From contig CP066686.1 of assembly GCA_016432365.1 (NCBI GenBank), positions 273,771 to 337,770 on the forward strand: a DNA stretch of 64,000 bases. Direction: 5' to 3'. The notes beneath the pieces were generated by a model, which did no database searches, was not told the DNA's origin, and was given only the letters and a program-made list of their open reading frames with translations. Positions 1,776 to 60,115 of this stretch are shown in pieces; the first letter of the stretch is position 1, and each line of letters begins with the position of its first letter. The stretch comes from Candidatus Woesebacteria bacterium (GTDB taxonomy: Bacteria > Patescibacteriota > Microgenomatia > UBA8517). Made by a program: the position numbers and the translations under genes.

Positions 1776-3427
1776 TGAATAGTTTGAAATTTATTGCCCT
1801 TTCGGGTACCACAGGGGTCACAGAAAATCTTTACGTCTACGAATATGGAAACGACATGATTGTCGTTGATTGTGGCGTCGGATTTCCCGATTCCGAAATG
1901 TTTGGTGTGGATCTTGTGATTCCCGATTTTACTTATGTAGTTCAGAATAAGCATAAGCTTCGCGGGGTTCTAATCTCCCACGGACACGAGGATCATTTGG
2001 GTGCCATCCCCTTTTTGCTTAAAGAAGTTGACACGCCTGTCTACGCGACAAAATTGGTTGCAGGTTTTATTCAAGAAAAGTTGATAGATTCCGGAATGGA
2101 TACTAAAAATGTTAAAGTTTTCGATCCGGACCATGATGTTTTAACCCTTGGAGTATTTAAAGTGACTCCTTTTCGCGTTGCCCATTCTGTTCCTGACGGA
2201 GTTGGTTTTTGTATAGATTCACCGGAAGGGAAGCTTTTCCATGTTCCCGATTACAAATTTGATTGGACTCCGGTAGACGGACGCCCTTTTGATGCAGCCA
2301 AAGTGGCGACGCTCGCCTCTGGTGGCGCGCTCGCCCTTGCATCGGACTCACTTGGTGCCACATCTCCGGGATATACCGAAAGCGAAAAGGCGATTGAAGG
2401 AAGAATTGAGGCGGCAGGGAGAGAAGCGACGGGAAAAATTTATTTAACGACAATATCGTCAAATATCTCGAGAATGCAGCAAACCATTAATGCCGCAGCA
2501 AAACTTGGAAGGAAAGTGGTGCTGATTGGACGATCAATTGAAAGAAAGGCAGAGATTGCGAGGCAATTGGGCTATATATTTTATCCGCAAGGGGTTGTAA
2601 TTCGTTCAAAACAAGCTGCAAAACTTCCTCCAAATAAAGTTCTATATATTATATCCGGCTGTTATGGGCAGCCCGGAAGCGCACTTTACCGTTTAGCAAC
2701 CGGCGAGCATGATTTTTTGACGATAAATAAAGGTGATATGGTAATTTTTTCGGCTGACCCCGGGCCTCCGGGAAGCGCAGGTGGAATAAATTTCTTAGTC
2801 GATAAATTTATCGAAGGCGAGATCGACGTTCACTATTATGATATGCAGGAGGATCTCCATGTCTCAGGGCATGGAAGCATTAAAGATATCGAGATGCTTT
2901 TTGCTCTCGTCAAACCCAAGTATTATATTCCCATCGGAGGAACTATTCGCCACATGAGGGCATATGGACTAATTGCTCAAAGTATGGGTGCAAAAGAAAA
3001 AGAAGTTCTGGAACTTACTCCCGGACAGATTGTGGAATATTCAGGTCAGAACGCAAGAATTGCGGGCAGAGTTCCTGTTAAAGAAGTTTTAATCGACGGA
3101 CTTGGGGTTGGAGATGTTGGAAATACAGTGCTTCGGGACCGACATATTCTTTCCAAAGAAGGGATTGTCATAACGATAATTCATTTTGATAGAAATAATG
3201 GGAGGCTTCTTTCTCCGCCGGAGATATTAAGCCGCGGGTTTGTTTTTGAACAAAAATACGGTAGGGTTTTGGATGAAGCCTCGCGTGATCTATCCCGTGA
3301 GCTTCAAAAGAAGAAATCGGTTAATTCAACATTTGCCAGAAATACCACAATAGACTTTTTGGAAAAATACTTCGCTCAAAAAACCGGCAGACGCCCCATG
3401 GTATTACCTGTCATAGTTGAAGTTTAA
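1775..3427 (+). CDS. rnj: ribonuclease J (metallo-beta-lactamase/beta-CASP)
   Basis: HGHEDH zinc motif, MBL fold followed by a beta-CASP region, about 550 aa. Confidence 0.9.
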   Translation: MNSLKFIALSGTTGVTENLYVYEYGNDMIVVDCGVGFPDSEMFGVDLVIPDFTYVVQNKHKLRGVLISHGHEDHLGAIPFLLKEVDTPVYATKLVAGFIQEKLIDSGMDTKNVKVFDPDHDVLTLGVFKVTPFRVAHSVPDGVGFCIDSPEGKLFHVPDYKFDWTPVDGRPFDAAKVATLASGGALALASDSLGATSPGYTESEKAIEGRIEAAGREATGKIYLTTISSNISRMQQTINAAAKLGRKVVLIGRSIERKAEIARQLGYIFYPQGVVIRSKQAAKLPPNKVLYIISGCYGQPGSALYRLATGEHDFLTINKGDMVIFSADPGPPGSAGGINFLVDKFIEGEIDVHYYDMQEDLHVSGHGSIKDIEMLFALVKPKYYIPIGGTIRHMRAYGLIAQSMGAKEKEVLELTPGQIVEYSGQNARIAGRVPVKEVLIDGLGVGDVGNTVLRDRHILSKEGIVITIIHFDRNNGRLLSPPEILSRGFVFEQKYGRVLDEASRDLSRELQKKKSVNSTFARNTTIDFLEKYFAQKTGRRPMVLPVIVEV

Positions 3428-4884
3428 TCACAGGCTTTAAGTGCGCTAATTGAGATATAGCTAATATTTTCCGGTTTATAGTATCGTTTTTCTTCCACAA
3501 AGAACTTATCCAGCCCCGCCAAGTTTCCATCTCGGGCAACAAAATAGACAGGAATAGGGCTTGTTAGACAACTCAGGTTTAATACAGATCGGTCGAGATT
3601 TCTCGAGTCGATGTAAGTGGGCTTTACCCAGGCCGAATTATTAAAATATGCAAATACCGCGCTTTCGGGGTTACCTGCATCAATCCGGACCCCGGCAATT
3701 ATTTTTTTATCTTTCCCTTTTTGATTCAAATAATCAACCACCTCCGGAATGCCGTAGCCCGATGTCCACCCGGTTAGATATTCGGATTTTTGTGAAAATA
3801 CTGTCATCTTGTCCATGACATTGAAATATGTAATAGGGGAAATAACTAGGAGGTAGGTAATCATGATCGTGGGTATTGTCGAAACACTTCCAATCAAAAT
3901 CGCATGTGCTTTCCTAAAGTTAAAAAGGGTGTATGCGCAAAAGACGGAGATAAGTGGAAAAAAGGCGGATAAATATCTAGGGTTAAGCGACTTGCCCGAA
4001 AATAAGACAAGGATAAAACCTGTCAAAAAAAAGGTTGGGAGAATTCTATCCTTTCTCTTTAATAAAAAATATATTCCACAAATTGACAATATAAAAACAA
4101 AAGGGGTTAAATAAAAAAAAGATATATTGACGGCAGTTGAAAAATTTCTTATCCACAAAGAAAACGGAAAACTTAACAGTTCTGGAATAGATAGCATAAA
4201 CCGGTTATTGGTGTTCAATGAGGTCCAGAATATTTTTTGAAAAAAAAGTGGGGAGACGATAATCAGACTGGAAATAGCAGACAAGGCGAATTCTTTAAAA
4301 TGTTTTTTGTAAATCAAAATTAAACTCACCGAAATTAAAAAAACAAATGCTGAAAGTTTTATAAAGATACCTATACCCAAGATGAGTCCAAGACAAACCG
4401 CGTATTTAGTTTTTTTGGTTTCAAGTATTCTTAGTAGAAAATAAAAACTCCAGATGCCACACCCGGCGATTGCCGATTCCATTAATGCTTGGCGATCAAA
4501 AAAGGCGAAAAGAGGAACAATAATGTAAACAATCGAAGATAAACGCGCAAGCCTTTCATCTCCTAAGTTTTTCGCGATTTTATAAATTCCGGCCAATGTT
4601 AAAAATCCAAACATAACGGATACAATCCTGCCCGCCAAAAGAGGCGAATTAAAAATGTTTTCAAATACTCCAAAAATCCAAATAAGGAGTGGAGGCTTGG
4701 CATCATATAGCGAATAAAATAATCCAGCACTGGTATAGAGAGATTTCCATCCCCAATCCAAATAAATTGCTTCGTCGTTAAAAATTGGGAGTTTGGTTAA
4801 GTTAACTATTCTCGACAAAAAATATATTACGGAAAGCGTAGCTAAGGAATGATTGTGAATAAACTGTGTGATTGTTTTTTTCAT
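3424..4884 (-). CDS. GT-C glycosyltransferase family 39 (ArnT/PMT-like) membrane protein
   Basis: Polytopic membrane protein with an N-terminal DEaiY-type loop (FNDEAIYLDWGW) typical of ArnT/PMT-family glycosyltransferases. Confidence 0.7.
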   Translation of the reverse strand: MKKTITQFIHNHSLATLSVIYFLSRIVNLTKLPIFNDEAIYLDWGWKSLYTSAGLFYSLYDAKPPLLIWIFGVFENIFNSPLLAGRIVSVMFGFLTLAGIYKIAKNLGDERLARLSSIVYIIVPLFAFFDRQALMESAIAGCGIWSFYFLLRILETKKTKYAVCLGLILGIGIFIKLSAFVFLISVSLILIYKKHFKEFALSAISSLIIVSPLFFQKIFWTSLNTNNRFMLSIPELLSFPFSLWIRNFSTAVNISFFYLTPFVFILSICGIYFLLKRKDRILPTFFLTGFILVLFSGKSLNPRYLSAFFPLISVFCAYTLFNFRKAHAILIGSVSTIPTIMITYLLVISPITYFNVMDKMTVFSQKSEYLTGWTSGYGIPEVVDYLNQKGKDKKIIAGVRIDAGNPESAVFAYFNNSAWVKPTYIDSRNLDRSVLNLSCLTSPIPVYFVARDGNLAGLDKFFVEEKRYYKPENISYISISALKACD

Positions 4885-41691: not shown

Positions 41692-41903
41692 AAAACCAAA
41701 GTACAGTTGAAGTTGATGGGGCCGTTTTGCAAGCATTGCCCAATACGATGTTCCGGGTACAGCTTACAGATGGCAGACTCATCCTGGTAACTTTGAAGGG
41801 GAAAATGAGGAGGGCTTATGTTAGAATATTCCCCGGCGATAGAGTGAAGGTGGAAATGACGCCGTACGACGAGAACAGGGGAAGGATAATATACAAATAT
41901 TAA
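41688..41903 (+). CDS. infA: translation initiation factor IF-1
   Basis: S1-like OB fold, 71 aa. Confidence 0.9.
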   Translation: MKNQSTVEVDGAVLQALPNTMFRVQLTDGRLILVTLKGKMRRAYVRIFPGDRVKVEMTPYDENRGRIIYKY

Positions 41904-41964
41904 AAATCAAAAATAAAAAAGTAAAAATATTTTTGATATTTGATATTTAATTTTTAATATTACG

Positions 41965-45579: not shown

Positions 45580-45990
45580 ATGGCAAAAACTAAAAAAATT
45601 GATTATTTGTACGGAGTGGGAAGAAGAAAGACTTCTCAGGCGAGAGTCAGAGTTTACCATGGAAAAGGTGAAAATACTGTTAACGGAAAACCAACAAATA
45701 AATATTTTGAGGGAGACGTACAGACAAAGGCATTAGCAAAGCCTTTTGGGGCAACCGAAACTTCCGATAAATATTATTACTCCGGCCGTGTTACGGGTGG
45801 TGGTAAAGAAGGTCAACTTTCAGCCCTTGTACTTGCTCTCTCCCGCGCTTTACTTAAAATTGCTCCCGAAAAGAACAGAGTAGTTCTTAGAAAACTCAAA
45901 TTGTTAACCCGCGACTCTCGTGTCCGCCAACGCAGAATGGTTGGAATGGGTGGTAAAAGCAGGAGGAAAAGACAGTCCCCTAAGCGTTAA
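45580..45990 (+). CDS. rpsI: 30S ribosomal protein S9
   Basis: Ends ...GKSRRKRQSPKR. Confidence 0.9.
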   Translation: MAKTKKIDYLYGVGRRKTSQARVRVYHGKGENTVNGKPTNKYFEGDVQTKALAKPFGATETSDKYYYSGRVTGGGKEGQLSALVLALSRALLKIAPEKNRVVLRKLKLLTRDSRVRQRRMVGMGGKSRRKRQSPKR

Positions 45991-46024
45991 AGTACGGCAA
46001 CTTCTTTGTTATACTGTTTTAAGC

Positions 46025-47086
46025 ATGGAAAAAACCAGTAGTTTAAAGTTGAAAGAAGCGTGCGTCATTGGAAGTATATACTACAACGATTATCAAACCG
46101 AAGGTTCTATAGGAAATGTCAGGGGAAAAGCGGCCATTAATTCGCTTATAAACATTCTGGAAAAAGGTTGTAAAGTTGCAATTATTATTGCCAAAGAGAC
46201 AGATCCAAAGTTTGTAGACGATTTAAAGGAGAAATTGTCGATTTTGGGTAATAAAAGTGAAAACATTGTTTGGAATTTTGAAAGAGAGAGCGGTTATAGT
46301 GAGGCAAGAAGAGAAGCGATTTCACTTGCAAGGTCAAAATATACTGAACCTCCCCCAAGAGTCTTCATAATGCAAGAAATTGAGAAAAACCTTTCGGAAA
46401 ATTATGAAGATTTTTTGAATACTTTGTCAAAAGATCGGGTATTGGTAATGATGGATAGAGGAATAAATATTTCCAACAATCAAGATTTATGGCCGGAACC
46501 GGATCATTCGGACGTCAATTTACCCAAGGACCAACTTTGGGGAGAGAGAAGTCAAAATATTAAAATGGCACGCCAGGAAGAAGTTTTTGGTTTGACCGAC
46601 AAAACGAAGGGTAATCATCTTTGGGACAGACTAAATGGAGTCAGAATTATAAGAAATGAATTAATGAAGACCGGAAATGTGGAGATAAATCCAAGTGACT
46701 TAATACTTTTAAAATACGAATATTCTGACGGATATACCGAAGAAGACAGGAGATTTAAAATGGATGGTTACTCAGCCAGTGTTTACAATCCAATTCCAAT
46801 TTTGGAAGCTTTGGGGGCGGAGAATCAAATGGCCCAAGTATCAGTAAATTATTTACACCCTGAAGAACAAAGGCAGCAGGAAGAAAATGACCCCAATTTT
46901 AGAGAAAAAAGATTAAGACAAAAAACCGATCTTCCGGCAAATAATTTTGAAATTGTGGCAAATATTAAAAAGTGGCAAAAAGAAGGTAGGTGGCCACAGG
47001 TTTTACTCGAAGCATTAAAGGGGGATAAAGTACTACATATAGTTCATCTTAAGGAAGACGAATACTTCTACGGATATAGCAACTAA
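46025..47086 (+). CDS. hypothetical protein (353 aa)
   Basis: Start set at the internal ATG after the rpsI stop. N-terminal region may be a nucleotide-binding alpha/beta fold (inference only). Confidence 0.5.
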   Translation: MEKTSSLKLKEACVIGSIYYNDYQTEGSIGNVRGKAAINSLINILEKGCKVAIIIAKETDPKFVDDLKEKLSILGNKSENIVWNFERESGYSEARREAISLARSKYTEPPPRVFIMQEIEKNLSENYEDFLNTLSKDRVLVMMDRGINISNNQDLWPEPDHSDVNLPKDQLWGERSQNIKMARQEEVFGLTDKTKGNHLWDRLNGVRIIRNELMKTGNVEINPSDLILLKYEYSDGYTEEDRRFKMDGYSASVYNPIPILEALGAENQMAQVSVNYLHPEEQRQQEENDPNFREKRLRQKTDLPANNFEIVANIKKWQKEGRWPQVLLEALKGDKVLHIVHLKEDEYFYGYSN

Positions 47087-47128
47087 GTTAATCCTGCAAA
47101 ATAATTGTTTTTATGATATTAATTAACA

Positions 47129-47641
47129 ATGGAGATCGGATTGATAAGCTCTTCAGATATGATGGACCTCCCCGACTACTGGGAGAAAAGACGTGAACTA
47201 TACATCAAGATATCGGACAACTCTAAATTTCAGGAAAATATGAAGAATAATAAAGAAAAGTGGACTCAAGAATTACTGAAAAGATACCCAAACCTTACAT
47301 CTAGTAAAGACAGTTTAGAAGAATCGATAAGAAGTGTAACCTTTATCGACTATTTGGTAAGAAACGAACTTCATACGGCAGATGCTCCATTTTTGCAACC
47401 TCGAGATGCAAATTCAAGTGACCCGATGCAAAAAACAGGGATTGAAGATTTGGTTGAAAAGTTCGTAAATGGTGACTTTGCCGCTGCAAGTGAGCAAGTT
47501 CAAAATGGCATTGAACTTATTGATAACAGCGCATTTTCTGTTGGACACAATATTCATATGGGTTTATTGGCACTTCACATTCTCCGAGAGGAGGCTGTGG
47601 GACTTCGCGGACATTTAAAAGCTTTAGAAAAGTCTAAATAA
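47129..47641 (+). CDS. hypothetical protein (170 aa)
   Basis: ORF only. Confidence 0.45.
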   Translation: MEIGLISSSDMMDLPDYWEKRRELYIKISDNSKFQENMKNNKEKWTQELLKRYPNLTSSKDSLEESIRSVTFIDYLVRNELHTADAPFLQPRDANSSDPMQKTGIEDLVEKFVNGDFAAASEQVQNGIELIDNSAFSVGHNIHMGLLALHILREEAVGLRGHLKALEKSK

Positions 47642-47691
47642 TTTCTTTCTGGGCACCGTGATGACCTTAAAATATTTGGTATACTTCAGAC

Positions 47692-48135
47692 ATGTCAGGT
47701 GAAAGGTTTACATTAAGAGTGGCGGTCTATCTTGTTTTGATTAAGAATGGTAAAACACTTCTTTCCAGGAGATTTAACACCGGCTGGATGGATGGAAAAT
47801 ATAGTTTAATAGCTGGCCACATTGACGGGAAAGAGTCGGTTTTTGGTGCTATGATCCGCGAAGCATTCGAGGAGGCGGGGATAAAAGTTTTAAAAAGCGA
47901 CGTGAAACCGTTGAAAGTGCTTCATAGAATGTCCGATGATGGTATGGAATATATGGACTTCTTTTTTATTGCCGAAAGATGGGAAAGGGAGCCAATAATT
48001 AAGGAACCAGATAAATGTGACGATATGGGTTGGTTTCCGGTTAACAATCTGCCTGACAATACTTTGCCGTACGTTAGATATGTGATTGAAAATTTCGAGG
48101 ATGGAGTTTCTTTCGTAGAATTTGGCTGGGATTAG
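47692..48135 (+). CDS. NUDIX hydrolase
   Basis: Nudix box GHIDGKESVFGAMIREAFEEAGI. A -10 box TATACT lies 6 nt before the ATG. Confidence 0.85.
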   Translation: MSGERFTLRVAVYLVLIKNGKTLLSRRFNTGWMDGKYSLIAGHIDGKESVFGAMIREAFEEAGIKVLKSDVKPLKVLHRMSDDGMEYMDFFFIAERWEREPIIKEPDKCDDMGWFPVNNLPDNTLPYVRYVIENFEDGVSFVEFGWD

Positions 48136-48166
48136 TTATCCTCAAATTAATCTGTTAAAATACGCA

Positions 48167-48189
48167 TGAGCGGTGTAGTTTTACCGGTA
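48167..48189 (+). repeat. direct repeat of the tRNA-Pro 5' end (GCGGTGTAGTTTTACCGGTAAG) within the tRNA leader
   Basis: Matches positions 3-24 of the downstream tRNA. Followed by GATGGGT/ACCCATC and GGTGC/GCACC hairpins but no T-arm. Confidence 0.4.
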
Positions 48190-48264
48190 AGCTTCGATGG
48201 GTCCCCACCCATCTCAGGTGCTTCGCACCAAGCTTGGCCGCTAAACTCCACCCCTCGTATAACT

Positions 48265-48335
48265 CGGGGTGTAGTTTACCGGTAGAATGGGCGCATGGGG
48301 TGCGTCCGGACTGAGTTCAATTCTCAGCACCCCGA
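48265..48335 (+). tRNA. tRNA-Pro (anticodon GGG), 71 nt, CCA not encoded
   Basis: Hand-folded cloverleaf. 7-bp acceptor stem with C1:G72, U8, D-loop ACCGGUA, anticodon stem GGCGC/GCGUC with loop AUGGGGU (U33, G37), 4-nt variable loop, T-arm CUGAG-UUCAAUU-CUCAG, discriminator A. Confidence 0.6.
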
Positions 48336-48337
48336 CT

Positions 48338-49390
48338 ATGTTTGCAGACTCTTTCGGTTTTGAAAATTTGGTGGCTGGTAGCCATGTAGTTTTTAAGGAA
48401 AGAGCACTTCAACTTACCCAAGCGGAGCGTGAAGTCAAAATAGACAATGCACGAAAACTCTACGCGGGAGTAGAGGTTCTTCGGAGATTTAGAAACGAAG
48501 CGCTATCAGAACAGGGTTCAAATCGACAAAAGGTGTTATCTGAGGCACACAAGTTTTCAGAATATATGGCAGGGACAATTTTAGATCTGTCATTACCAGA
48601 AAAGCCAATTTCTTGCAGTCCTCAGGTTCTAAAAAATATTCAAGATGTTCAAGGGAGGCTTCAAAATAAAAATGCAAGTTCTTATCATTCTAACCCGCCT
48701 TCAACTGTCGTACACAATTTATTCAGAGCTACCGAAGACATGCTTGTCAGGATAGAAGAAAAAGCCGGATCCGTTGTCAGTCCAGATCATAAATTATCAG
48801 CCGACGAGCTAAAATATGTACTTGTCGAATTTCTTTCAGGGACAAATATGTTGCCGAGAGATGCTATTGGAAAGTTTTTTAACAAATCCTCAAAAATCGG
48901 TGGAATTTTAAGTGGGGGGAGTGTTTACCTGGAAATTGTCAAAAAGGTTGTAGAAAAGTATGGGAATGGTTTTACAATCAAGACATTTGTTATTGCTGTA
49001 GATAAAGAAAAAAAGGTGGTGGCTTATGAGCAGGGGTCGAATGATGACAAGGTCGCTGACGTAATCTTAACCGACGATATGATTGATAGAGGGGGGACAA
49101 TGACCACGGCGCTTCAAAATGCCGGCGGAACTTTTCAAAACGCTACAATCTATTCGGGTAATGGTCGTGAACTGCCCGGGGAATTTCAGAAAAGGCAAAC
49201 TCAAAAACGAATGGGTCATTTAACAATACTATTTCAGGATTATGCAGATCTATCTATGGCAGGTAAATATGTCGATGCAGATAGGATTTTTGAGCAGGCG
49301 AATTCTTATGCTAAAGATAACGGAGTAGAGCTTCAGCCTGGTTGGTATATAAGAAAGGCAAAGATTGACGAACTTCGCAAGAGAAAGTAA
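48338..49390 (+). CDS. hypothetical protein with C-terminal type-I phosphoribosyltransferase (PRTase) domain
   Basis: PRPP-binding motif VILTDDMIDRGGTMTTA and a preceding GGILSGG PPi loop. Start moved to 48338 because the ORF-track start lies inside the tRNA. Confidence 0.6.
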   Translation: MFADSFGFENLVAGSHVVFKERALQLTQAEREVKIDNARKLYAGVEVLRRFRNEALSEQGSNRQKVLSEAHKFSEYMAGTILDLSLPEKPISCSPQVLKNIQDVQGRLQNKNASSYHSNPPSTVVHNLFRATEDMLVRIEEKAGSVVSPDHKLSADELKYVLVEFLSGTNMLPRDAIGKFFNKSSKIGGILSGGSVYLEIVKKVVEKYGNGFTIKTFVIAVDKEKKVVAYEQGSNDDKVADVILTDDMIDRGGTMTTALQNAGGTFQNATIYSGNGRELPGEFQKRQTQKRMGHLTILFQDYADLSMAGKYVDADRIFEQANSYAKDNGVELQPGWYIRKAKIDELRKRK

Positions 49391-49446: not shown

Positions 49447-50532
49447 ATGGTGAAACACAAAAAACCCGAAACTGAGGCTCCAACTAAACAAGAAGGTGGC
49501 GCACAAAAATTGGCTGCAATCCGACTTGCGATGGACCAAATCGAAAAACAATACGGTAAGGGAAGTATAATGCGCCTCGGTGGAGACAGCGGTGAGAAAT
49601 TTAAGTTTGATGTAATTTCCACGGGCTCCATAGCGGTTGATTTGGCACTTGGAGTGGGTGGTTTCCCAAGAGGCCGAATTATAGAAATCTATGGCCCTGA
49701 AGCTTCGGGCAAAACCACATTGGCTCTTTCTGTTATTGCTGAAGCTCAAAAAATGGGCGGACAATGCGCTTTTGTAGACGCAGAACACGCCTTGGATCCT
49801 ACACGTGCGGAAATTTTGGGGGTGGATCTGGATAATCTTTTAATGTCCCAACCGGACACTGGTGAACAAGCTTTGGAAATCACGGAAACTTTAATTCGTT
49901 CAGGTGCGATAGATGTGGTTGTAGTTGATTCGGTTGCCGCACTTGTGCCGAGAGCGGAACTTGAAGGAGAAATGGGTGACAGTGTTATGGGAATGCAGGC
50001 CCGTTTAATGTCTCAAGCCTTGAGAAAACTTACCGGTGCAATTTCAAAATCAAAAACGGTTTTGATATTCACCAACCAACTTCGCCAAAAAATCGGTGTT
50101 ATGTTTGGCAACCCGGAAACAACCCCCGGAGGACTTGCGCTTAAATTCTATTCGTCAGTTCGCATAGATCTAAGAAGAATTGAAGTTCTTAAAGATGGGG
50201 AAAAAGTGATTGGTTCAAGACATCGTGCAAGGATAGTCAAAAATAAATGCGCCCCTCCCCTTAGGGTTGCCGAGTTTGACATAATGGAAACAGAGGGAAT
50301 AAGTAGATTTGGTGGAATTCTGGATGTGGGTCTTGAGTTGGGGCTAATCGGCAAAAACGGATCTTTCTTTAATTACGATGGCAAGCCAATAGCTCAAGGC
50401 AAAGAAGCGGCAAAATTGTACTTAAAAGATAACTCTAAAGTGGCTGACGAAATTGACAAAAAGATTCGCGACCTAGTTGCTTCCGGTAAACCTCTGCCAA
50501 AAGAAATTGGTGAAGAAAATAAAGAAGAATAA
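49447..50532 (+). CDS. recA: recombinase RecA
   Basis: Walker [10 protein letters not shown] and L1/L2 loops. Short N-terminal extension. Confidence 0.95.
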
Positions 50533-52775: not shown

Positions 52776-52938
52776 AGCAAAAGTTGTGCACTTGTTATTA
52801 ATCTGCTAAAATACTCCCTAGAGTCAAAGAAAATGGTACAAAGAGCCTCACAAATAGCTTCTTTCGCCACTCAGGCCATCTGAGATTTCTTTCTTTGCTC
52901 TACTAGTGCCTAATGCCTAGTTTCTAATTACTAATTTT

Positions 52939-54102
52939 ATGACCGCGCAAGACGATTACAAAGATAAACTGGCCAAGGTTGCCAAGATGACAGTTGATGA
53001 GGCTAAAAAGGCCCTTTTGGATGAAGTTCAAAAGGAGCTCACCGGGGAGATTGCCAAAAAAATCAGGGCTGCCGAAGAAAAGATCAAAGAGGAAGCCCAC
53101 GAAAAATCTCTCGAAATTCTCCTGGATGCCATGAAGCAAGGCGCTACCGGTTACGTTGCCGAATATACGGTTTCTTCAGTTACCGTGCCTAACGAAGACG
53201 CCAAAGGCCGAATTATCGGCGCGGGAGGACGTAACATCCGTACTTTTGAAAAAGAGGCGGGGGTTGAAATCGAAATCGACGAAACAAACGATATCAGGCT
53301 TTCTTCGTTTGATGCTGTTCGTCGCGAAATTGCCAGGCGTGCTCTTGAAATCCTTATCAAAGACGCCAGAATTCAGCCTTCCAGGATTGAAGAAGTTGTC
53401 CGCCAGGTGAAAGCCAGCATGGAAGAAGTCCTTTTAGAGGAAGGAAAGAAAATTACTCACGAATGCGGAGTCTACAACTTGCCGGTAGAATTAATGAGAC
53501 TTATCGGCCGTTTCAGATTTAGGACCTCTTATGGACAAAACTTAGGAATCCACACCATAGAAGAAACAAAAATGGGAATCGCGATTGCCCAGGAGGTTGG
53601 AGCAAATGCAGATGTGGTGCGGCTCGGATGCTTATTGCACGATGTTGGTAAAATCGTAACCGATGAAGAGGGGAATCATATTGAGCTTGGTGTCAATCTT
53701 CTTAAAAAATATGGACTACCCAAAGAAGTTGTTGCTTGTGTAGCAGAACACCATGAGGATAGGCCTTTTTCATCCAACGAATCCGTAATTGTTTGGATGG
53801 CTGATGCAATTTCCGGTTCACGCCCCGGGGCCAGATACGAACCACACGAAGGATATGTTAAAAGAATGACCAAAATTGAAGAAGTTTCAAAAGGTTTCCC
53901 CGGAGTGGACCAGGTATTTGCATTCCAGGCAGGACGTGATGTCCGCGTGATAGTCAATCCCGACGAAGTAGATGATGACAAACTTACGGTTTTGGCTCAT
54001 GACATAGCAAGGAAACTTGAAAAAGAAGCAGAATATGCAGGACAAATTAAAGTCTCCGTTATTCGCGAAGTTCGCGCCACAGAAACAACTTCAGCTAAAT
54101 AG
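52939..54102 (+). CDS. rny: ribonuclease Y
   Basis: Coiled-coil N-terminus, KH domain (GRIIGAGGRNIR), HD domain (HDVGK...). Confidence 0.9.
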   Translation: MTAQDDYKDKLAKVAKMTVDEAKKALLDEVQKELTGEIAKKIRAAEEKIKEEAHEKSLEILLDAMKQGATGYVAEYTVSSVTVPNEDAKGRIIGAGGRNIRTFEKEAGVEIEIDETNDIRLSSFDAVRREIARRALEILIKDARIQPSRIEEVVRQVKASMEEVLLEEGKKITHECGVYNLPVELMRLIGRFRFRTSYGQNLGIHTIEETKMGIAIAQEVGANADVVRLGCLLHDVGKIVTDEEGNHIELGVNLLKKYGLPKEVVACVAEHHEDRPFSSNESVIVWMADAISGSRPGARYEPHEGYVKRMTKIEEVSKGFPGVDQVFAFQAGRDVRVIVNPDEVDDDKLTVLAHDIARKLEKEAEYAGQIKVSVIREVRATETTSAK

Positions 54103-54581: not shown

Positions 54582-54857
54582 ATGACAAAAGGTGACTTGA
54601 TTGATCAAGTGGCAAGAAAAGCACATCTTACAAAAAAAGCTGCAGAAGAAGCTGTTGAGGTTTTTCTTAATGAAATCGGACGCATTTTATCTAAAGGCGA
54701 GAAAGTTGTTCTTTCCGGATTTGGAACTTTCAGAGTAATTTCGATGAAAGGTAAAACCGTTAAGATTCCAAAAACAGAAAAAATGGTTACAATTAAATCT
54801 CACAGATCTCCCCGTTTTACTCCAGGAAAGAAACTCAAACGCCAAGTGGCGAGGTAA
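54582..54857 (+). CDS. hup: HU-family DNA-binding protein
   Basis: MTKGDLIDQVA..., the GFGTF beta-arm motif and RSPRF motif. Confidence 0.85.
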   Translation: MTKGDLIDQVARKAHLTKKAAEEAVEVFLNEIGRILSKGEKVVLSGFGTFRVISMKGKTVKIPKTEKMVTIKSHRSPRFTPGKKLKRQVAR

Positions 54858-55003
54858 ATTCGAAATACGAAGCTTCAAACGCGAAACAATATTTGAATTC
54901 TAAATCCGAATGTTTAAAACATTAGAATTTATGATTTTGAATTTGTTTAGAATTTCGCGCTTCGAATTTCGGATTTGGAAAGTATACGTAGTATACTTGA
55001 CGT

Positions 55004-59562: not shown

Positions 59563-59781
59563 AAAAAATCCCGCATGTGCGGGATTTTTGTACTCTAGAG
59601 AGTAGTAAGCCATTTTCGCTACGCTCAAATGTCTTGGCTTCTCTCTAGTGCACGATACGAAAAACCCCTCCTTATGGAGGGGTAAATCGTACTCTAGAGA
59701 GTAGTAAGCAAATCTTGCTACTCGTTATCCATAAAAAATCCCACGAAAGTGGGATTTTATATACTCTAGAGAGTAGTAAGC
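59563..59781 (-). repeat. three tandem modules of (rnpB 3'-terminal 21-mer GCTTACTACTCTCTAGAGTAC plus intrinsic-terminator hairpin)
   Basis: The antisense 20-mer TACTCTAGAGAGTAGTAAGC occurs identically at 59591-59610, 59690-59709 and 59762-59781. Each copy is flanked by a hairpin of different sequence that conserves the stem (ATCCCGCA/TGCGGGAT; CCCCTCC/GGAGGGG; ATCCCAC/GTGGGAT) next to a T-run. Confidence 0.7.
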
Positions 59782-60115
59782 CAGGTTCTGTTAGGCCCTG
59801 AACAAATTTCAGGGTTTGACGATCATCCATCTAACGCCCTCGAACTTCGGAACGTGGCTCGATTACTCGAGCCGTTGGTAAAGCTCCTGTAACGTTCCTT
59901 TCGGAGGTTGCAGCGGGGAGGATTGCCTCTTTTCACTCGTTTTTCCCTACCTTTAGGGTAAGAAAATCGACATAGTCTCTGTGGCTCTAACTGGCTACAT
60001 TCCTTGCGGAACATATCCCAGGCTTACGCCTGGCACCCTGCTTTTCTGCTGCCTGGACTTTCCTCCCCTCATAGCCTTGCGGCGACGTGGGGCGATCATC
60101 CTTTCTCTAGAGTGA
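59762..60115 (-). ncRNA. rnpB: RNase P RNA (bacterial type A)
   Basis: The reverse complement carries GAGGGGAGGAAAGUCCAGGC (P4 5' strand, CR-I) and AGCAGGGUGCCAGGCGUAAGCCUGGG (the P10-P12 region). It also has AGGUAGGG.AAAA.GAGUGAAAAG (CR-II-like) and a P18 hairpin followed by ACAGAACCUGGCUUAC (CR-V, P4 3' strand). P1 pairs ACUCUAGAGA with UCUCUAGAGU. Confidence 0.8.

Follow-up and report, generated by a model that had tools for sequence, protein, structure and literature searches.

The tRNA-Pro(GGG) gene of the window, the 64,000-nt stretch of Candidatus Woesebacteria DNA analysed here, is an ordinary, conserved and syntenic gene of a Woesebacteria-type genome of the Candidate Phyla Radiation (CPR). 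The long sequence in front of it is probably the lineage-specific scar of a quasi-palindromic duplication, in which a direct copy and an inverted copy of the 5′ half of the tRNA precede the intact gene at an otherwise normal, syntenic tRNA-Pro locus. The data are explained without any dedicated function of this leader.

A single tRNA was called by ARAGORN in the 64-kb window, tRNA-Pro(GGG) at 48265–48336 on the + strand. The Rfam tRNA model (RF00005) matched 48265–48335 end to end with 47.6 bits (gathering score 29, E = 9e-9). In the Rfam alignment C1 pairs with G72, the discriminator is A73, and the anticodon loop AUGGGGU provides G37. C1:G72, A73 and G37 are features tied to recognition by ProRS and to m1G37 methylation by TrmD. 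The original prediction of a genuine bacterial-type tRNA-Pro(GGG) with these features was confirmed by the ARAGORN call and the Rfam score. It had named the D-stem as a possible reason for tRNA finders to reject the fold. The D-stem is indeed weak and rich in G.U and A.U pairs (GUUU/GAAU), and it caused no rejection by either ARAGORN or the Rfam model. When the whole window was searched against Rfam with default filters the gene was missed, so it can be overlooked, though not by ARAGORN; the sole match listed in that run was the bacterial class A RNase P RNA at 59761–60111 on the − strand (105.9 bits).

Compared with bacterial tRNA-Pro(GGG) genes such as E. coli proL, the window gene has the same cloverleaf, GGG anticodon, C1:G72 pair, A73 and G37, and it differs in nothing essential. 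Its D-stem is G.U/A.U-rich, its 5′ leader of about 96 nt is unusually long, and CCA is not encoded, whereas it is encoded in two relatives: the 3′ end reads ...CCCCGA-CTATG in the window and ...CCCCGA-CCA in loci L012 and L014.

The relatives were obtained through RecA homologues (92–93% identity) and comprise three independent loci, L012, L013 and L014, with L015 and L016 as near-duplicates. The gene order rpoA-L17-L13-S9-(variable genes)-tRNA-Pro(GGG)-recA-recX-rny-HU is shared by L012–L016. In the window recA is located at 49447–50532 on the + strand (Pfam RecA, E = 7e-131) and serves as the conserved downstream anchor of the tRNA-Pro locus. The tRNA is 100% identical to that at 3821–3892 of L012, and those of L013 and L014 differ at a few positions with pairing kept, as in the change of U13 to C13 opposite G22. 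In L014–L016 the orthologous tRNA-Pro(GGG) (3879–3952) is inverted relative to recA and its promoter is divergent from recA. The interval between S9 and the tRNA is occupied in the window (45920–48135) by three genes, encoding a 388-aa protein and a 170-aa protein of unknown family and a Nudix hydrolase; in the relatives it contains a glycosyltransferase and a Nudix gene, or an acetyltransferase and a PNPOx gene, or is empty.

An extended −10 promoter upstream of the tRNA copy had been predicted, and TGTTAAAAT was read from the sequence at 48153–48161 (+ strand). A TGnTAAAAT box also precedes the orthologous tRNA in all three relatives, 12 nt upstream in L012, 21 nt in L013 and 14 nt in L014, which identifies it as the ancestral tRNA-Pro promoter. 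In the alignment of the locus with its relatives the window box TGTTAAAATACGC corresponds to TGATAAAATACGC of L013. Directly 5′ of the tRNA stands a native-type proximal leader, TCGTATAACT (48255–48264, + strand), which overlaps the end of the 3′ arm described below and resembles TCGGATAAAACT at the equivalent position of L013. Between the −10 box and the tRNA the window contains an extra 80–90 nt that are absent from L012, L013 and L014 (alignment A2). The tRNA leaders of the relatives are roughly 5–14 nt long, and in each of them the −10 box, 12–21 nt upstream, is followed by no other element before the tRNA. The fact that the relatives have the box and the tRNA without the block indicates that the leader is a derived insertion between the ancestral promoter and the ancestral tRNA.

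The inserted sequence consists of two arms and a core. The 5′ arm (48166–48194, + strand) is a direct copy, made up of a few native leader bases followed by tRNA positions 1–21. Between 48172–48189 and 48268–48284 of the tRNA 18 positions match with one 1-nt gap, and the score of the arm against the tRNA was reached by none of 5000 shuffles. The start-to-start spacing is 95–96 nt, in agreement with the predicted copy of the tRNA 5′ end about 95 nt upstream, and about 73 nt separate the tRNA-derived direct copy from the intact tRNA. A 21-mer of the arm had no other match in the 64 kb at up to 3 mismatches (0 expected). The core (48195–48229, + strand) is 35 nt long and forms the two hairpins that had been predicted to follow the copy: GATGGGT-CCCC-ACCCATC with 7 bp at 48196–48213 and GGTGC-TTC-GCACC with 5 bp at 48217–48229. 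A T-arm is absent, also as predicted. The similarity of the core to the middle of the tRNA was not significant (369 of 2000 shuffles reached the score, p ~0.18), and no sequence similar to the core was found elsewhere in the window or in loci L001–L016. The 3′ arm (48230–48258, + strand) pairs with the 5′ arm and is an inverted copy of the 5′ half of the tRNA. Its reverse complement matches that half at 15 of 17 positions, a result reached by 2 of 5000 shuffles. With the 3′ end of the tRNA the arm has only CACCCC in common, and that score was reached by 1554 of 5000 shuffles. Because the 3′ arm is an inverted 5′ half, the apparent acceptor stem of the leader is an arm of the palindrome and not a retained 3′ strand of a tRNA.

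Folding of the leader gave −42.3 kcal/mol (z = −5.8). The 93-nt unit 48166–48258 folds on the + strand into a rod of about 36 bp at −41.5 kcal/mol (z = −6.2), and its complementary (−) strand folds as well or better, at −44.3 kcal/mol. Since both strands fold about equally, the leader is a DNA palindrome without a strand bias pointing to selection at the RNA level. The three copies have diverged from each other (GCGGTG versus GGGGTG; TTTT versus TTT), and in the acceptor-like stem of the leader a C1:G72 to A:U difference keeps the pairing. TCGT belongs both to the inverted arm, at its end, and to the native leader, and the junctions of the core are obscured by divergence. The whole unit is single-copy in the 64-kb window and absent from loci L001–L016, and a search of 47600–48900 revealed no Rfam family match to the leader at E ≤ 10. 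Other intergenic inverted repeats occur in the window at 41895–41961 (an AT-rich 33-nt palindrome), at 54856–54969 (25-nt arms 64 nt apart) and at 59590–59704, where several nested inverted repeats lie just beside the RNase P RNA gene; none of them resembles the tRNA leader.

The leader had been proposed to be either a tRNA-like element or the scar of an integration at the tRNA gene. Its derivation from the tRNA was well supported, by the direct copy in the 5′ arm (0 of 5000 shuffles) and the inverted copy in the 3′ arm (2 of 5000). The description as tRNA-like was not supported. ARAGORN made no call in the leader, and no second match to the tRNA clan at E ≤ 10 was obtained in the 1.3 kb from 47600 to 48900. 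At minimum energy the leader folds into a rod that ends in two hairpins and has neither an anticodon loop nor a T-arm; because the 3′ arm inverts the 5′ half of the tRNA, this fold is palindromic and rod-like, not a cloverleaf. Several other candidates were rejected. Drawn by hand as a type-II-like tRNA, the leader has a D-arm and a poor T-arm, but it lacks a 7-nt anticodon loop and finds no support from the models. Homology to the tRNA over the whole length fails in the middle, where similarity was not significant. A 39-codon ORF running from ATG 48166 through the palindrome to TAG 48285 was unsupported and runs into the tRNA, and a self-cleaving ribozyme was dismissed as no Rfam matches were found. 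A search of the literature gave nothing relevant on tRNA-like elements of CPR bacteria.

The arrangement of a direct copy, an inverted copy and an intact original is what would be expected of a fold-back or template-switch error of replication or repair, and not of site-specific integration. Taken together, the order of the copies, the absence of the block from the relatives and the equal folding of both strands favour a duplication by fold-back or template switch close to the 5′ part of the tRNA gene. Judged from the arrangement, such an error would have added the 80–90 nt between the ancestral promoter and the tRNA. Transcription would then start around 48167–48169 and give a 5′ leader of about 96 nt, which would fold co-transcriptionally into the stable rod before the tRNA is transcribed. 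RNase P, whose RNA gene lies in the window, would cut at C1 and discard the leader, and CCA would be added to tRNA-Pro enzymatically, as the insertion of the downstream gene replaced the encoded CCA with CTA. The locus is like known quasi-palindrome and inverted-triplication rearrangements in its copy order, in the absence of the block from relatives and possibly in the short junction overlap TCGT. It differs from them in its 35-nt two-hairpin core and in the divergence of the copies, for which one clean event does not account. Two further observations count against a scar. The divergence of the three copies means that some time has passed without loss of the palindrome from a streamlined genome of 1.08 Mb, so that the palindrome could be tolerated or useful. 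The pairing is also strong (about 36 bp in 93 nt, z ~ −6), and the C1:G72 to A:U change preserved it.

Of the proposed integration scar, one part stood: the leader is a lineage-specific scar, absent from three relatives. The marks of site-specific integration were lacking. Classic att duplications repeat the 3′ part of a tRNA and flank an element with an integrase. The window resembles att sites in tRNA genes in having a partial tRNA copy beside an intact tRNA and in the variable gene content of the relatives, but the part repeated here is the 5′ half, in one case in inverted form, at a distance of 96 nt and without cargo or integrase. No copy of the tRNA 3′ part was found within 1.5 kb on either side of tRNA-Pro(GGG). 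The proteins encoded nearby (RecA, RecX, the PRTase-like protein, the Nudix hydrolase and unknowns of 388, 170 and 225 aa) were compared with at least one library each among Pfam, NCBIfam, PHROGs and PADLOC, and no match to an integrase, recombinase or mobile-element family was obtained. The suggested integrase or attL/attR-like arrangement was thus not recovered, there being no integrase, no 3′ repeat and no cargo between the copies, and for the same reasons, together with the repetition of the 5′ half, site-specific integration is the weaker explanation.

A broader version of this idea, in which the leader is left from a mobile element by site-specific integration, by a homing-endonuclease event or by the decay of a miniature inverted-repeat element with ends like the tRNA 5′ half, is unlikely, and it is nevertheless the alternative that survives best. 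Both flanks of the tRNA are variable hot spots, with three accessory genes upstream and a single-gene PRTase cassette exactly after C74, and the leader arms are inverted terminal arms. In other CPR loci (L008 and L004) 5′ tRNA fragments were displaced upstream by inserted genes. A nuclease of the GIY-YIG type, SegB of phage T4, cuts in a tRNA gene cluster (PMC2330249). Against such an origin, searches around the tRNA found no gene for an integrase, a nuclease or a transposase, the copies enclose no cargo, and there is neither a 3′ att repeat nor an evident target-site duplication. Miniature inverted-repeat elements are marked by multiple copies and a target-site duplication; the unit is single-copy in the 64 kb and no duplication was seen to flank it. 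Integration leaves the inverted copy unexplained.

The loci concerned show what insertions beside CPR tRNA genes look like. In L008 two small hairpins and then an 83-aa GIY-YIG ORF (Pfam E = 7e-17) come after an exact 14-nt copy of the 5′ end of tRNA-Ser(GGA) (1977–2295 in all), and the stop codon of the ORF lies inside the intact tRNA-Ser at 2281–2366. On sequence grounds this looks like the insertion of a nuclease gene that duplicated the 5′ end of the tRNA, and it shows that the insertion of a nuclease gene at a CPR tRNA gene can go along with duplication on the 5′ side. As with the free-standing GIY-YIG homing endonucleases of tRNA gene regions such as T4 SegB (PMC2330249), L008 has a GIY-YIG ORF between fragment and tRNA-Ser; the window differs in having no GIY-YIG ORF and only about 73 nt between the copies. 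In L004 a 16-nt fragment of the 5′ end of tRNA-Ser(UGA) (1912–1927) stands about 950 nt upstream of the intact tRNA (2866–2955), and genes for a HEAT-like protein of unknown function and an Imm5-like immunity protein lie between the two.

Fragments of tRNA 3′ ends, from the T-loop to the discriminator, are repeated downstream of intact tRNAs like att debris in L001 (2711–2729, 2869–2881, 2928–2941), L010 (about 2887–2904) and L008 (2513–2531). The downstream copy in L008 carries CCA, although none is encoded in the L008 tRNA gene. Two homologous units, each structured and about 120 nt long, are located directly downstream of the tRNA in L001 (2612–2730, tRNA-Pro-CGG) and L008 (2413–2533, tRNA-Ser-GGA). 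Each reuses the acceptor strands and the T-stem and 3′ end of its own tRNA, the two share the hairpin AGCAAACTGCTTTGCT and other blocks, and both stand upstream of PRTase-like genes. Thirteen of 33 consensus pairs were kept by changes on both sides. Neither unit matched Rfam at E ≤ 10, and covariance model R1, built from the two, had no match in the window at E ≤ 10. The units may represent an undescribed tRNA-flanking element or small RNA of CPR bacteria. A scan of viral contigs for a shared 5′-half pattern gave nothing; the 16-mer of the L001/L008 hairpin had 51 matches in viral contigs, about the number expected by chance, and these look unrelated. Taken from sequence comparison, the flanking rearrangements suggest that tRNA flanks are active rearrangement sites in these genomes, which fits the reading of the window leader as a scar.

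Less likely still is selection on the leader as an RNA element, in which a structured 5′ leader derived from the tRNA would tune the maturation or expression of tRNA-Pro(GGG) and the co-transcribed PRTase-like gene. In such an element the inverted arm could possibly pair with the upstream copy, acting as a decoy, or with the 5′ half of the tRNA itself. The strong fold of the leader (z = −5.8 and −6.2) is consistent with this, as are its start almost exactly at the predicted transcription start and the two mismatches of the arms that are G.U on the + strand. Fold prediction also indicated that the 3′ arm can alternatively form a hairpin of about 12 bp with the 5′ half of the real tRNA, and a terminator-like match lies at 48253–48269, where the 3′ arm meets the tRNA. 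However, the element is absent from all three relatives, which manage with their short leaders, the minus strand folds at least as well, and neither homologues nor an Rfam match were found. A more specific model is highly doubtful, namely that the leader would act as a folding or processing switch in which the inverted anti-5′-half traps the acceptor/D region in the 12-bp hairpin, the upstream copy, being transcribed first, serves as decoy, and the stability or cleavage of the leader would set the release of mature tRNA-Pro(GGG) and of the PRTase mRNA. Were conservation and processing of the leader to be shown, it would represent an unusual regulator of tRNA maturation derived from the tRNA itself; the data so far do not argue for this.

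It is very improbable that a second gene is present in the leader, whether a tandem tRNA-Pro that decayed to a pseudogene or a small RNA in its own right. The leader opens with acceptor-plus-D-arm sequence, closes with CACCCC pairing to it, and its similarity reaches a few bases upstream of tRNA position 1. Against this, neither ARAGORN nor the covariance model calls a tRNA, similarity to the tRNA is not significant in the middle (p ~0.18), the 3′ arm corresponds to the inverted 5′ half and not to a T-arm or 3′ end, and there is no promoter separate from that of the tRNA.

With a duplication scar as the preferred account of the 5′ side, the 3′ side of the tRNA is occupied by a lineage-specific single-gene insertion between the tRNA and recA, the 350-aa phosphoribosyltransferase (PRTase)-like gene at 48338–49390 (+ strand). 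The ORF track starts a 367-aa ORF at ATG 48287, and ORF callers thus run straight through tRNA-Pro(GGG). The N-termini of 25 homologues (42–52% identity, alignment A1) line up with ATG 48338, and the NCBI protein QQG42048.1 (‘phosphoribosyltransferase’, Candidatus Woesebacteria) is 350 aa long and 100% identical to the product of that start; the 367-aa version comes from another, public gene call. From 48338 the protein begins MFADSFGFENL, compared with a consensus of MxFxPxxFExxLxGSHV. Translation from 48287 is therefore not supported, and the suspicion that this start is spurious proved justified. The upstream ATG had been placed in the anticodon loop, and this was incorrect. It occupies linear tRNA positions 23–25, in the 3′ strand of the D-stem, and the ATG within the anticodon loop is 48295, out of frame with the PRTase-like ORF. 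The gene begins 3 nt past the tRNA, as had been stated (ATG 48338, A73 at 48335).

Only 7 of the 43 long ORFs of the window are preceded by an SD-like 4-mer. The missing Shine-Dalgarno sequence at the PRTase-like gene is thus unremarkable, and a leaderless or otherwise special mode of translation, considered for this reason, was rejected. The match of the protein to PF00156 is weak (20.6 bits), and its PRPP-loop region matches PRTases in the PDB weakly. The gene is absent between the tRNA and recA in L012–L016. The cassette begins after C74 of the tRNA, inside the former CCA, with A76 becoming the A of the start codon, and homology to the relatives resumes no more than about 15 nt past the stop codon, in the approximately 55 nt proximal to recA. 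The locus has little import for biology at large, as its tRNA is standard and conserved. It is a clean example of tRNA flanks as hot spots of rearrangement and insertion in a streamlined CPR genome, with a quasi-palindromic duplication on the 5′ side and a single-gene cassette starting in the former CCA on the 3′ side.

Genes of the PRTase-like family were found directly downstream of a same-strand tRNA in 4 of 10 distinct loci: the window (48338, Pro-GGG), L001 (about 2971, Pro-CGG), L004 (3001, Ser-UGA) and L010 (3001, Ser-UGA). In L008 one HTH gene separates the PRTase-like gene at 3001 from tRNA-Ser-GGA. At an estimated density of roughly 45 tRNA genes per 1000 genes, at least 4 of 10 loci beside a tRNA would be expected about once in a thousand. 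No relatives were recovered from genome contigs with either the PRTase protein or the alignment of its family as query, and a metagenome scan for the family returned one short contig, L007.

A near-copy of the tRNA promoter region was noticed elsewhere in the window. The 18-mer ATTAATCTGCTAAAATAC at 52797–52814 is nearly identical to ATTAATCTGTTAAAATAC (48146–48163) and stands upstream of a 387-aa ORF (52939–54102) that occupies the position of the RNase Y gene of the relatives. Strong extended −10 promoters of this type probably recur in the genome. In L011 a PRTase homologue lies among several Nudix and MazG genes, a context which hints at a role in nucleotide house-cleaning or salvage.
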